Assembly: GCF_057098645.1 (NCBI RefSeq)
Contig: NZ_CM169472.1
Strand: one strand, 5' to 3'
Length of the DNA stretch: 64,000 bases
Shown piece after piece: positions 1,776-35,541 of the stretch. The notes beneath the pieces were generated by a model that saw only the letters and a program-made list of their open reading frames with translations, had not been told where the DNA came from and made no database searches. A program made the translations under genes and the position numbers. Position 1 is the first letter of the stretch; every line of letters starts with the position of its first letter.

Positions 1776-3227
1776 TTATCGCCGCCAGCGTCTGAGCAGG
1801 CGGCTTCGCATCCCGGTATCAAAGCGCCAGATATGATCGAAAATGCGCATGATGCCGGGTTTGCCGTGTGCCGACATCGCCACGGCATGAAAGCGATGCT
1901 GATGTACCCGCTGCAGCTCTTTCACTTTACTCGTCACGTCGTCAGGCAACCGCTGGGCGATAAAATCAGAAATCACCACCGCATCGGCATCAAACCATTC
2001 CCTGCTTTGCAAGCGTTCCATAATGGCGCGAAAACAACTGGCAAGATCGGTGCCGCCACGAAACTGCTGGCTTAAAAAACGGATTGCTTGTTCGATGCCT
2101 TGTGGGCCTGAAAGCTCATAACGGACGATCTCGGTGGAAAATAGCATAATATAACAGCGCCGGTTTTCAGCGAGAGCAATGCGCATCAAAGCCAGGCAGA
2201 ACGCTTTCGCACACTGTTCATTAAAGCCGCCCATTGAGCCGGAAGTATCCACGCAGACAATAAACGGTCCGCGCGGCTGTTCGTCGTAATCTTTATGCAC
2301 CACCGGGCGTTCGATCACTTTTTCACGCCACGACTCACCGTGCAGGCGATAGGTGAGCAACTGTTTTTCCACCAGCCGACGGTAAAACTCATACTCCAGT
2401 TCCGTTATCCCTAGTGTCGCCAGTTCTGGCGGCAGAAGACGTAAAATATCATCGCTTTGTTGCAGACCATCAACCTGCTCAGGAACCGTCGCCGGTTCGC
2501 GCACCATGGTGCGGAAGGTTTCCATCTGCGCATCGTTACGCGGTATTGATTTGGCTTCCCGAGAACGCCCCAGCTGCTCTGCCAGGCGTTTCAGTTCCGG
2601 CTGTTCGTTAAGAAATTCACCGTATTTCACAATCAACTGATAGTCGCCACGTTTAAGCTGACTGGCGCTCATATCCCACAGACGACCAGCTGCGGTATTG
2701 TTATCTGCGAGAATCGGTTCAAGTTGTCCGCTCAGCGTCATGCGTTCCTGAACTTCACTCAACAGTTGTTCGCGTTCTTCTTCTAATAGCTGTTGATTTA
2801 ACGTCGTTGCTTGCACGATCAGACTTAAACGCCAGCGCTGGAGAAAAAGCGTGTGTAACGCTGAAGTGATCGTGCTGTTAGTATCAACCAACTGCCGGGC
2901 TTGTTCTGCCCATGGGGAATTCAGACGATGCAGTAAGTCCATGATCTGTGGTAGCTGCACAATAAACTGCGGCGTGGAGAGGAGCTGGCTTTGCTGATAG
3001 CACATCACCTCTTCGGTGAGTTCCGGCGGGACTCGGGCATCTTTCAGCCGACTGCGCAGCGCCTCACGCCAGCGGGGAACATCATCAGTGATTGCCGCCT
3101 TCAGTCGTGGGAATTTTTCAAAGAAGACCGCCAGCTGCGGTGAGGCCAGCAGCGCGATGATCATCTCTTCGATCAATCCCTCTTCGCTGACGGCCAGCAT
3201 CACATTAAGCGTATCCAGCGTTAGCAT
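1776..3227 (-). CDS. viaA: VWA-domain protein ViaA, partner of RavA
   Basis: 483-aa ORF immediately downstream of ravA with a 7-bp overlap. Confidence 0.9.
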
Positions 3228-4717
3228 TGTTGTGCCTGGCGAATCTGTGCGCCGACATCCTGTAGGCTGGCTTCAATGCGACCTAACCAGTCGCCAGGGA
3301 TAAACAGACATCTTTGCTGTTCGCTGAATAAAGCGTGTTGCTTGCGCCAGTCGCTTTCAAGCTCTTCCAGTTGTTGTTTTATTTCACCTGGCAGACCTTC
3401 AGCCGATGAACCGGGAAGTGCCAGCGTACTGCCTTGTAAACTTACATCGCGTACAACAAGATGTTGGGCGCTATCCACTTCCAGATTCAATTTCTGGGCA
3501 AAGCCGATACCGTTCAGTTTGCCGCGAATTTCACCACCTTTACTCAGCCACTGTTCCAGCGCGTTACGCTCAAAGGAGATATGAACCACTTCCATATCAT
3601 GCAATTTTAACGGTTTTTGCAGCAGCAGAGTCAGAGTGGAAGCAGTAACGTTAACAGGAAGTTGATACTGCTGACGACGGCTGAAAATGCCGCCCAGACG
3701 AATTACCGTTAAGGCTGTTTTATCGCTTTGTTGCTGCTGGAGTTGCAGGTGACGTTGCACAATCGCACCAAGGCGAGTCAACATCCCTTGCTGTTGCCAG
3801 GCGTGACCGGTCATCAATACATCAATTTGTTGTTGTATCAAATTCAGGCTTTGCGCGTCATACCACAGGCAATCTTTCAGCAAAATGAGATCTACCGGGG
3901 CAACAGCACTGCGACCGCTAAAAAAGGCGCTGGCCTGCAATAAGCGGATCGCTTTTTTCCAGCGACGATCCGAGACATAAGGCGCATCCGGTAATTTATC
4001 CAGTTGCTGGCGCAGCATAAAAATCAGCTCAAATACATGATCGGGCAGCGTAATTTCACCAATCTCTTTCTGCCAGCGTTCATATTCTTCATCTGTGACC
4101 TGCAAGGCATCAGGAACCGGATTGTCGTTTTCATCCTGTTGACTGGTCAGCATGGAGCGGAAATTCGCTTTATCCTGCACTTTATCTAACCACAGACGAA
4201 TCAGCATGCGGTCATATAACGCTTCCAGACTGCTGTCTGCTTCCGGCAGCTCGTTGGAGGCCGCCACCAGCAGGCGCATCGGGATTTTTTCTACGTGTGC
4301 ACCGTTGCGGAACTGGCGCTCGTTAATGGCGGTGAGCAAGGTATTAAGAATTGCCGGACCCGCTTTCCAGATCTCATCCAGAAAGACAATTTCTGCTTCC
4401 GGCAGGTAACCGCTGGTTAAACGTTCATAGCGCCCTTCATCTTTTAGCGCCTGAATAGAAAGGGGACCAAAAACTTCTTCCGGCGTGGAGAAGCGGGTCA
4501 TCAGATATTCAAACGCGCGGGCATTCTGAAAGGCGAATTTTAAGCGCCGGGCGATCAAACTTTTGGCAATACCTGGCGGGCCAAGGAGGAACACACTTTC
4601 ACCACTTAATGCCGCTAATAAACACAAGCGGATGGCGTGGCTACGTTCATAAAGCCCCTTTTCCAACGAACTGCTCAGGCGGGAAATTCTTTCCGCTAAT
4701 AAATGAGGGTGAGCCAT
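3221..4717 (-). CDS. ravA: MoxR-family AAA+ ATPase RavA
   Basis: Walker A motif GPPGIAKS; start placed at internal Met (MAHPHLL) to give 498 aa, the ORF track starts 8 codons earlier. Confidence 0.9.
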
Positions 4718-33059: not shown

Positions 33060-33365
<306 letters not shown>

Positions 33366-33539
33366 TCAGGCGGCGATTTTAGCATGATCCGCAGATGCTA
33401 ACGTAATTGTCAGTCAGGGAGGGGCTGGTACATATATGGCAAAAGCCCGGAAAATCCGGGCTTCGCAGGTCCCTCAAGGGGAGAAAACTTAGGGCCTCTA
33501 TGGGCTACAAAGTCATTATCGGGGATGGTGATTTTATTG

Positions 33540-33989
33540 TCAATTTATGAGCGATATGGCATTGATTGACTTGATGACCGCCCTCTGTATGTCTGCAACC
33601 AACTCATGTGGCAAACATTGATTAAGATACCCTCTGTAAGTTCTTGCTCTGTTTAATCTGTTTCGACTGACTTGTTGTACCAGGTCGGCTTTGGCCCAAC
33701 GAATCTGCTGATCAAAGAATTGCAGGTCATTGATAATATTACTGGCTATTTCAACATGCATTCCACGATTTAACTTGTCATGGTCGCGAGTGGTTGATAA
33801 TGGAACGACGATACATGCGTTGCCATTAATTTTTCCGTTGAGCACGACAACTAACCTGTTTTTTATCATTTCAGGAGGAATGCGGCCATCGTAATACGTG
33901 GTGCTGAACGGTCCATTTTGGCTAACAGGATAGTTACCAAAGTTGCATTCCAGTATTTCACCAACCTTAGGGCTGAAATTAATCGCCAC
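33540..33989 (-). CDS. yifN: PemK/MazF-like toxin-fold protein (yifN-like), 149 aa
   Basis: Start proposed at a GTG preceded by the strong Shine-Dalgarno AAGGAGAG; N-terminal GEILECNFG, then RLVVVLNG and IVVPLSTT, resemble the PemK/MazF fold; the longer 212-aa track ORF reads into the IS2 end. Confidence 0.6.
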
Positions 33990-34134
33990 GAGTAAACCTC
34001 TCCTTAGTAAACTCTGAAAAAGTAATAACACAACGTTACGACCTAGACTGGCCCCCTGAATCTCCAGACAACCAGTATCACTTAAATAAGTGATAGTCTT
34101 AATACTAGTTTTTAGACTAGTCATTGGAGAACAG

Positions 34135-34500
34135 ATGATTGATGTCTTAGGGCCGGAGAAACGCAGACGGCGTACCACACAGGAAAAGATCGCAATTGTT
34201 CAGCAGAGCTTTGAACCGGGGATGACGGTCTCCCTCGTTGCCCGGCAACATGGTGTAGCAGCCAGCCAGTTATTTCTCTGGCGTAAGCAATACCAGGAAG
34301 GAAGTCTTACTGCTGTGGCCGCCGGAGAACAGGTTGTTCCTGCCTCTGAACTTGCTGCCGCCATGAAGCAGATTAAAGAACTCCAGCGCCTGCTCGGCAA
34401 GAAAACGATGGAAAATGAACTCCTCAAAGAAGCCGTTGAATATGGACGGGCAAAAAAGTGGATAGCGCACGCGCCCTTATTGCCCGGGGATGGGGAGTAA
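34135..34500 (+). CDS. insC: IS2 OrfA (InsC), transposition regulator
   Basis: 121 aa starting [14 protein letters not shown]; helix-turn-helix protein. Confidence 0.93.
34452..34458 (+). other. A6G slippery heptamer, programmed -1 frameshift site joining insC to insD
   Basis: AAAAAAG near the end of insC; the insD frame is -1 relative to insC and overlaps it. Confidence 0.75.
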
Positions 34501-35363
34501 GCTTAGTCAGCCGTTGTCTCCGGGTGTCGCGTGCGCAGTTGCACGTCATTCTCAGACGAACCGATGACTGGATGGATGGCCGCCGCAGTCGTCACACTGA
34601 TGATACGGATGTGCTTCTCCGTATACACCATGTTATCGGAGAGCTGCCCACGTATGGTTATCGTCGGGTATGGGCGCTGCTTCGCAGACAGGCAGAACTT
34701 GATGGTATGCCTGCGATCAATGCCAAACGTGTTTACCGGATCATGCGCCAGAATGCGCTGTTGCTTGAGCGAAAACCTGCTGTACCGCCATCGAAACGGG
34801 CACATACAGGCAGAGTGGCCGTGAAAGAAAGCAATCAGCGATGGTGCTCTGACGGGTTCGAGTTCTGCTGTGATAACGGAGAGAGACTGCGTGTCACGTT
34901 CGCGCTGGACTGCTGTGATCGTGAGGCACTGCACTGGGCGGTGACTACCGGCGGCTTCAACAGTGAAACAGTACAGGACGTCATGCTGGGAGCGGTGGAA
35001 CGCCGCTTCGGCAACGATCTTCCGTCGTCTCCAGTGGAGTGGCTGACGGATAATGGTTCATGCTACCGGGCTAATGAAACACGCCAGTTCGCCCGGATGT
35101 TGGGACTTGAACCGAAGAACACGGCGGTGCGGAGTCCGGAGAGTAACGGAATAGCAGAGAGCTTCGTGAAAACGATAAAGCGTGACTACATCAGTATCAT
35201 GCCCAAACCAGACGGGTTAACGGCAGCAAAGAACCTTGCAGAGGCGTTCGAGCATTATAACGAATGGCATCCGCATAGTGCGCTGGGTTATCGCTCGCCA
35301 CGGGAATATCTGCGGCAGCGGGCTTGTAATGGGTTAAGTGATAACAGATGTCTGGAAATATAG
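34458..35363 (+). CDS. insD: IS2 OrfB (InsD), DDE transposase catalytic part
   Basis: 301-aa ORF in the -1 frame, recognised as IS3-family integrase; probably expressed as an OrfAB fusion. Confidence 0.9.
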
Positions 35364-35541
35364 GGGCAAATCCACGACCCGATATTTTCTAAGTCTAATG
35401 GATTCACGATGAACTCCGATTTCGGTCTTCTCTCTCTGATTTAAACATCCGCAGCCAACCGGTTAGCGGCTTACACGCGGTCACATTCAAATGCGATTCT
35501 GCTACAATCCTCCCCCCGTTCGAAGATTGAGCAATACACCT

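Follow-up and report, generated by a model that had tools for sequence, protein, structure and literature searches.

A small RNA gene linked to yifN, a MazF/PemK-fold gene of Escherichia coli that lacks a protein antitoxin partner

Introduction

How can a bacterial chromosome carry an intact gene for a MazF-fold protein with no antitoxin gene at its side? MazF toxins are a textbook type II family with protein antitoxins. A 64,000-nucleotide stretch of Escherichia coli DNA (NCBI RefSeq assembly GCF_057098645.1, contig NZ_CM169472.1; hereafter the window), which represents the ilvA-ilvY-ilvC / ppiC / rep region, carries such a gene at positions 33540-33989 on the minus strand. An initial annotation, made from the sequence alone, described it as a solitary toxin-fold gene and considered it an orphan, a decayed toxin-antitoxin (TA) remnant, or a gene whose regulation had been rewired by the neighboring insertion sequence IS2.

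Here, we show that this gene is yifN and that describing it as an orphan is misleading: the 198-bp spacer downstream of it contains a conserved, separately transcribed small RNA gene, and the two are linked in both search directions, from protein to RNA and from RNA to protein. Databases already contained yifN and its fold assignment, and one published table already includes the small RNA. The novelty seems to lie in connecting them: the sole conserved partner of this MazF-family protein is a small RNA dedicated to it. Our favored reading, to which we give an even chance, is that YifN is an RNA-cleaving toxin kept inactive by this RNA, and that both genes form a mobile two-gene module; toxicity of YifN, its binding of the RNA, and its neutralization by the RNA are what we infer from the results below.

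Results

Coding sequence and product of yifN

The coding sequence comprises 149 codons and a TGA stop and encodes a MazF/PemK-fold protein. Translation of the minus-strand open reading frame (ORF) places its GTG start codon at 33989-33987, and the Shine-Dalgarno sequence AAGGAGAG (33998-34005, minus strand) can be read 8 nt 5' of it. Frame, start, and ribosome-binding site thus agree with the initial annotation, as do the PemK/MazF/Kid-like motifs in the translation, including IVVPLSTT. The longest mechanical frame runs to 34178 and would encode 212 amino acids; 45 of its 63 extra 5' codons lie within IS2, as had been remarked of the left IS2 end. Since the N-terminus of YifN is common to homologs from many genera in the family alignment, the GTG is the conserved start. 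The Prokaryotic Genome Annotation Pipeline (PGAP) calls the identical frame in O157:H7 (WP_000996692.1, "type II toxin-antitoxin system PemK/MazF family toxin"), and homologs carry the JGI label "YifN (PemK superfamily)." In K-12-like genomes, the yifN frame is flagged as frameshifted in RefSeq; this is the K-12 pseudogene yifN. The window thus carries E. coli yifN in its intact form. A Ribo-RET preprint (bioRxiv 10.1101/520783) reported ribosome initiation signals at two in-frame positions of yifN, the annotated start and one upstream of it, from which its authors suggested two isoforms. The upstream in-frame frame now enters IS2 in the window.

The Pfam profile PF02452 (PemK_toxin) matched residues 38-141 of YifN with 42.3 bits (E 9.4e-11) over profile positions 15-108/109. 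The gathering cutoff of this profile is 23.1 bits, and PemK_toxin is the sole Pfam family above the curated cutoff for YifN. Because of this match and the PGAP call in O157:H7, yifN is not a chance ORF, and the fold proposed in the initial annotation stands. YifN has the SH3-like barrel with a C-terminal helix that characterizes MazF, Kid, and CcdB. An AlphaFold2 model built from 43 homologs reached a mean predicted local distance difference test score of 79; the nearest structures are all toxins, and the fold is held in common with CptN, ToxN, and AbiQ. R29 and T52 are catalytic residues of E. coli MazF. Alignment with hhalign placed E40, R45, and S65 of YifN opposite MazF E24, R29, and T52, and all three are invariant in the 43 YifN homologs. 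Because of this correspondence and invariance, the RNase active site is plausibly retained in YifN. The protein is longer than MazF mainly through a long beta1-beta2 loop, which carries an invariant PPEM-K motif.

Homologs of about 150 amino acids were found in Enterobacterales, Pseudomonas, Aeromonas, Shewanella, Legionellaceae, Xanthomonas, and betaproteobacteria. The family is small, with 474 matches at E<1e-3 and 30 at E<1e-30 among 1.84 billion cluster representatives. YifN is a member of a small, distinct subfamily of MazF/PemK-fold, endoribonuclease-like proteins. Searches of NCBIfam, PADLOC, and PDB sequences with YifN returned nothing useful, and PHROGs gave a single match, to a family without assigned function.

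A structured small RNA gene in the yifN-ppiC spacer

The start codon of ppiC lies at 33341, 198 bp beyond the yifN stop codon. Within this spacer, a covariance model and a K-12 transcript support a gene for a small non-coding RNA of about 71 nt (33438-33508, minus strand), which starts with GUAGCCC, ends with GGGCUUUUGCC, and corresponds to ecr3777 of K-12. A promoter scan identified its promoter at 33515-33543 (minus strand), consisting of TTGACA (33543-33538), a 17-nt spacer, and GATAAT (33520-33515), with 11 of 12 positions matching the consensus. The -35 hexamer contains the yifN stop codon, and about 70 nt past the promoter a GC-rich hairpin is followed by a U-run. Most homologous loci have an aligned TTGAC- and -10 hexamer, with TTGACA-17-TATTAT in Pseudomonas.

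The RNA comprises three hairpins, all read on the minus strand. In P1 (33494-33505; GCC, a CAUAGA loop, GGC), all cells of the alignment of 36 distinct sequences pair, with two G-C/C-G flips and two G-U pairs. P2 (33470-33482; UCCC, a CUUGA loop, GGGA) shows compensatory changes in three of its four pairs, one of which occurs as CG 22, GC 5, UA 3, and UG 3 times. The intrinsic terminator (33442-33464), formed by GAAGCCCGGA and UCCGGGCUUU and followed by U and GCC, was obtained from RNAalifold and the covariance alignment; RNAalifold gives 10 pairs, 7 of them with compensatory changes, and 99% of cells pair. This terminator ends the small RNA and any read-through transcript from yifN. RNAalifold on a MAFFT alignment recovered only the terminator, and P1 and P2 were set by hand and realigned with the covariance model. 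Over the whole RNA, 97% of cells pair and 11 of the 17 pairs show compensatory changes, a level reached by none of 500 shuffles; with the partners slid by one to three columns, only 29-61% of cells pair. Most of the covariation support comes from the terminator and P2. The covariance model scored the RNA gene with 78.1 bits (E 9e-17), its sole strong match in the 64-kb window. Rfam, searched up to E 10, contained no family for it; the best overlap, with rnk_pseudo, scored 20.3 bits (E 2.5), short of the gathering score of 55.

Existence and expression of the RNA are documented in K-12. Romero et al. 2014 (PMC4681348) reported a new small RNA 3' of yifN on the same strand, supported by RNA sequencing and a northern blot (Fig. 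7 of that paper). It is listed in their Table S5 as ecr3777(d+), ppiC-yifO intergenic, 79 nt, with Conway et al. 2014 given as also detecting it. In the accessible text of PMC4681348, ecr3777 figures only as a newly detected transcript; neither its function nor its structure is described, and nothing is said about its phylogenetic distribution or a connection with yifN.

A few genera share a 47-amino-acid ORF on the strand opposite to the RNA gene (33407-33550, plus strand). Three observations led us to reject it as coding: the RNA alignment has indels whose lengths are not divisible by three, the ORF is absent from most loci, and promoter, terminator, and experimental transcript all lie on the yifN strand. 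We judge it to be a by-product of the conservation of the RNA sequence.

Linkage of the RNA to yifN across genomes

Downstream of yifN homologs in Serratia and Pseudomonas, the same arrangement of promoter and GC-rich hairpin was found, with clearly homologous sequence. Homologs of the RNA were sought with nhmmer and then with the covariance model, which represents the two short hairpins and the terminator. The latter located the RNA beside every full-length YifN homolog with at least 39% identity to the E. coli protein, in gamma- and betaproteobacteria and on plasmids, including pCAR1 and an E. coli IncX1/F plasmid, and gave no match in an E. coli locus lacking yifN. The reverse search, with an RNA sequence pattern against a metagenome collection, identified 29 contigs, and yifN was situated directly upstream of the RNA in all 29. 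In at least 13 of these contigs yifN is frameshifted or truncated. Broken yifN beside an intact RNA is thus common, occurring in K-12 and in these contigs, and every locus found with an intact yifN also had the RNA.

The RNA gene is convergent with yifN in Shewanella and divergent in one Herbaspirillum and in Massilia. Herbaspirillum carries two tandem copies (locus L049, 1982-2060 and 2139-2219, minus strand) and Massilia one (locus L046, 2136-2214), in both cases upstream of yifN and beyond an ORF of 176-190 amino acids that abuts yifN and encodes a winged helix-turn-helix protein resembling HTH_36/DnaD_N (2459-2989 in L049). Because of these arrangements, the linkage between RNA and yifN is independent of cotranscription. 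The Herbaspirillum YifN protein has a 65-amino-acid, Ala/Gln-rich C-terminal tail.

The two short hairpins look like a repeated unit, of which Roseateles chitinivorans has a third copy; their loops (CNUNGA) are conserved, as is a CUAAG linker. More distant YifN-like proteins of about 140 amino acids (27-34% identity), from alphaproteobacteria and one planctomycete genome, are without the long loop. Their genes are followed by a GC-rich hairpin element of 110-130 nt, which ends in a terminator and shares a YUNAAG(U/A)CC-like motif that comes next to hairpin one on its 3' side. This element lies within 100-130 nt after the genes (loci L054, L056, L058-L065, L067, L070, and L072), one example reading GUAGUGCGCCUCAAGUCCAC...GUGGCGA...CAAGCC...terminator. 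The covariance model scores these elements weakly, and the sequences are too few for covariation analysis. The element is perhaps the same RNA in a diverged state, and its presence suggests that the pairing of protein and RNA might be older than the YifN subfamily.

Absence of a protein antitoxin and genomic contexts of yifN

Neither flank of yifN in the window contains a small antitoxin-like ORF: ppiC is 198 bp away on one side, and IS2 followed by rep lies on the other, as the initial annotation had stated. No adjacent, cotranscribed MazE/PemI-like gene of the kind found in type II systems accompanies yifN. Across 31 loci, no conserved neighbor ORF was detected next to the gene. Since the neighboring genes vary genus by genus and no flanking ORF is conserved in these loci, the absence of a protein antitoxin is a property of the YifN family and not the outcome of decay in this strain.

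These observations bear on the proposal that yifN is a true orphan toxin-fold gene or a decaying TA remnant, with the RNA representing a conserved 3' end, a terminator, or an unrelated small RNA. The lack of a protein antitoxin, the pseudogene in K-12, and the absence of yifN from about 27% of E. coli genomes would fit this explanation. However, the gene in the window is intact, its product retains every family-invariant residue, and the family measures about 150 amino acids across classes and lacks a protein antitoxin in all contexts examined. In addition, the RNA has its own conserved promoter, and it cannot be a mere 3' untranslated region of yifN because it remains linked even when located on the opposite strand or upstream. 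We consider the proposal decidedly improbable.

Among plasmids in PLSDB, 120 carry yifN, including pCAR1, pND6-1, the large plasmid of P. savastanoi 1448A, and E. coli IncX1/F plasmids. In pCAR1 (81041-91487), the module lies among about 20 small co-directional hypothetical genes, together with genes for an N-6 DNA methylase, a GNAT acetyltransferase, and protein phosphatases. This run of genes resembles the early-entry or leading region of a conjugative plasmid. A literature search on the pCAR1 transcriptome brought up nothing relevant. Viral contigs gave no match to the RNA pattern, and since a YifN search of phage records gave only three weak Vibrio matches, the module is not obviously phage-borne.

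Complementarity between the RNA and yifN mRNA

An adjacent, separately transcribed RNA might also act on the yifN message. One possibility is an antisense antitoxin of the type I kind, which would anneal to yifN codons 5-20 and block translation or trigger decay. A scan of the whole mRNA placed the best duplex at coding nt 14-60 for 6 of 21 loci, a recurrent but weak signal, and strong duplexes were predicted in Photorhabdus (-34 kcal/mol) and Herbaspirillum (-38.7 kcal/mol). Compared with a control region, this part of the coding sequence also gave stronger duplexes with the RNAs in general (-23.8 versus -18.8 kcal/mol). However, cognate pairs were no better than non-cognate ones (-23.3 versus -23.8 kcal/mol), and several cognate duplexes were poor (-13 to -17 kcal/mol). 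At the translation start region of yifN, there was no excess over shuffled sequences. A consistent inverted repeat between the 5' end of yifN and the RNA was not found, and the pairing region of the RNA is locked within the conserved hairpins. Moreover, type I toxins are small hydrophobic peptides, whereas YifN is a soluble MazF-fold protein of 149 amino acids. With no specific signal at the translation start, over the whole mRNA, or in the comparison of cognate with non-cognate pairs, we rejected antisense pairing as the main mechanism and regard this reading as improbable.

IS2 insertion upstream of yifN

IS2 (1331 bp) occupies 34044-35374 on the plus strand, as defined from its sequence and from loci without it. 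Its left end points toward yifN and lies 54 bp 5' of the start codon, and the 5-bp target duplication CGACC is found at 34039-34043 and 35375-35379. A near-identical junction was present in only 2 of 5426 complete E. coli genomes, where it represents an independent insertion 1 bp away. ST540 has another IS2 nearby, and a laboratory-evolved line gained an IS2 inside yifN (PMC4340650); because of these cases, the yifN region is an IS2 hot spot. The insertion in the window disrupts neither yifN and its ribosome-binding site nor the RNA gene or the promoter of rep.

It could be argued that IS2 is the relevant feature, having silenced or re-promoted yifN and thereby made a lone toxin gene tolerable. 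We consider this highly improbable. Thousands of genomes carry intact yifN without IS2, so its tolerance does not depend on the element, and the promoter scan detected no outward promoter at the left IS2 end. The insertion is strain specific and incidental to the identity of yifN.

The ppiC-rep islet and the K-12 pseudogene

Genome comparison identified an accessory segment between ppiC and rep (33358-35538) that contains yifN, the RNA gene, and, in this strain, IS2. The yifN segment was present in 3982 of 5426 complete E. coli genomes, and the remainder matched only at the ppiC end; about 27% of the complete genomes have an unrelated 86-bp ppiC-rep spacer in its place. E. coli thus has two unrelated ppiC-rep forms, one of about 865 bp with yifN and the RNA and one of 86 bp (33358-35538 in the window versus 3059-3128 in locus L004). 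Their breakpoints are located 17 nt 5' of the ppiC ATG and immediately before the rep ATG, and consequently the ppiC and rep promoters differ between the two forms. On the minus strand 5' of ppiC, two CTGACA-18-GATCAT promoter-like sites (33384-33413 and 33340-33369) lie within the accessory segment. The yifN-less strain T309.Ta3 shows a second structural difference: an MFS transporter gene and a C-terminal-binding-protein-type gene are found to the left of ppiC (L004, 1-2355), where the window has ilvC.

Two natural variants were informative about the module itself. A 44-bp deletion in the ppiC-yifN spacer of ETEC6334 (33360-33403 in the window) spares the RNA exactly; it takes part of the CTGACA-18-GATCAT region upstream of ppiC. 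The K-12-type pseudogene results from a 1-bp deletion in the His71 codon (near 3480 in loci L002 and L003, corresponding to about 33779, codon 71, in the window). The same split at residues 70/71 was seen in 9 of the 29 metagenome contigs, in which the RNA is identical to that of intact strains.

Discussion

In the mechanism that we favor, YifN would be a MazF-fold endoribonuclease that cuts cellular RNA when free. The abundant RNA of about 71-79 nt, made from its own strong promoter over the yifN stop codon, would bind YifN directly and hold it inactive. Once synthesis of the RNA stops, for instance upon plasmid loss or phage-induced host shut-off, free YifN would cleave cellular RNA. Several observations speak for direct binding of the protein: the conserved hairpin loops, the repeat-like hairpins, the duplication of the whole RNA gene in Herbaspirillum, the strong, constitutive-looking promoter, the fold shared with CptN, ToxN, and AbiQ, carriage on plasmids, and the persistence of the RNA where yifN is broken.

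Other points weigh against this interpretation. Toxicity, RNA cleavage, and RNA binding by YifN are deduced, the last solely from linkage and the conserved hairpin loops. For the alignment with the MazF residues, hhalign gives a low probability (3%), yet the placement is consistent with the significant match in Pfam. The covariation of P1 is weak, since its stem is nearly invariant, and the covariance-model alignment was fitted to the proposed structure. Statistically, the bias toward loci in which yifN is broken and the RNA intact does not decide the matter: the RNA offers mutation a six-fold smaller target, and one and the same frameshift recurs in many of the contigs. The architecture is unlike that of every characterized type III system in that the RNA is single-copy, located downstream, and has its own promoter, and no tandem repeats were found in the yifN loci of E. 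coli or pCAR1. Finally, strict linkage fits an obligate RNA cofactor or substrate equally well.

The last point leads to a reading without toxicity, in which YifN and the RNA form a ribonucleoprotein and the RNA serves as a dedicated substrate, cofactor, or guide, for example of a processing enzyme acting on a regulatory RNA. The two-way linkage is accommodated as readily by such a particle as by an antitoxin, and the conserved loop sequences point to recognition by a protein. On the other hand, the MazF catalytic positions are retained and invariant, and the closest structures all belong to toxins. The module is carried by many conjugative plasmids and by a strain-variable islet, and yifN is often a pseudogene while the RNA persists, which are habits of TA modules. 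A non-toxic ribonucleoprotein is thus unlikely, though we allow it a real chance.

Should YifN indeed be neutralized by the RNA, a branch of the MazF family with a small RNA in place of a protein antitoxin would make the boundary between type II and type III systems less sharp and add a new architecture of RNA antitoxins. It would also give a role to a K-12 small RNA that was detected in 2014 and has had none assigned. Thousands of genomes contain a gene annotated as a type II toxin without an antitoxin; TA surveys restricted to proteins would miss RNA partners of this kind and score such genes as orphans. K-12 hosts express the RNA from the chromosome, and toxicity screens in K-12 would therefore probably miss the YifN toxin. 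The module resides on catabolic and virulence plasmids such as pCAR1, pND6-1, and p1448A-A, and a part in maintaining plasmids or in defense against phages is therefore possible. The openly searchable literature contained no functional study of yifN, of a PemK toxin with an RNA antitoxin, or of orphan toxins, and no paper in it described the connection between yifN and the small RNA; subscription-only literature was outside this scope.

Among known systems, the MazF, PemK (Kid), and ChpBK toxins of type II (PF02452) are related to YifN by the significant profile match, the fold, and the counterparts of MazF E24, R29, and T52, and YifN shares with them its occurrence on plasmids and in variable chromosomal islets. 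YifN differs from these toxins in being about 40 amino acids longer, with a beta1-beta2 loop of 27 residues that contains the invariant PPEM-K, and in having no MazE/PemI-type antitoxin gene upstream in any examined locus. Its family profile is also distant from the bulk of MazF, as reflected by the 474 clusters at E<1e-3 out of 1.84 billion.

The trans-encoded type I pairs tisB/istR-1, zorO/orzO, and dinQ/agrB likewise combine a toxin gene with an adjacent, separately transcribed small RNA that does not overlap it. In contrast to the membrane peptides encoded by these toxin genes, YifN is a soluble RNase-fold protein of 149 amino acids, and the complementarity between its gene and the RNA is weak and not cognate specific.

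In type III systems, an RNA antitoxin inhibits a protein toxin, the mode of action that we propose for YifN and its RNA. YifN has no sequence match to the ToxN, AbiQ, and CptN families, and its relation to ToxIN, AbiQ/antiQ, CptIN, and TenpIN is one of fold only. Whereas type III toxins belong to the ToxN/AbiQ, CptN, or TenpN families, PemK_toxin is the only Pfam family assigned to YifN, and PADLOC returned no hit. Type III RNAs consist of tandem direct repeats upstream of the toxin gene, with a terminator in between, whereas the yifN RNA is single-copy, usually downstream, and transcribed from its own promoter. With K-12 ecr3777(d+), the RNA of the window shares locus and strand, the reported length being 79 nt and the predicted core in the window 71 nt.

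Viewed against these systems, YifN and its RNA might constitute a new class of TA system, a proposal to which we assign somewhat less than an even chance. Such a class would comprise a MazF/PemK endoribonuclease neutralized by a single-copy, separately promoted, hairpin-rich small RNA, and would spread through the Proteobacteria both by conjugative plasmids and in the form of a chromosomal islet. Diverged, longer RNAs would accompany the homologs of about 140 amino acids, and ecr3777 would be the antitoxin left behind after the frameshift in the K-12 toxin gene.
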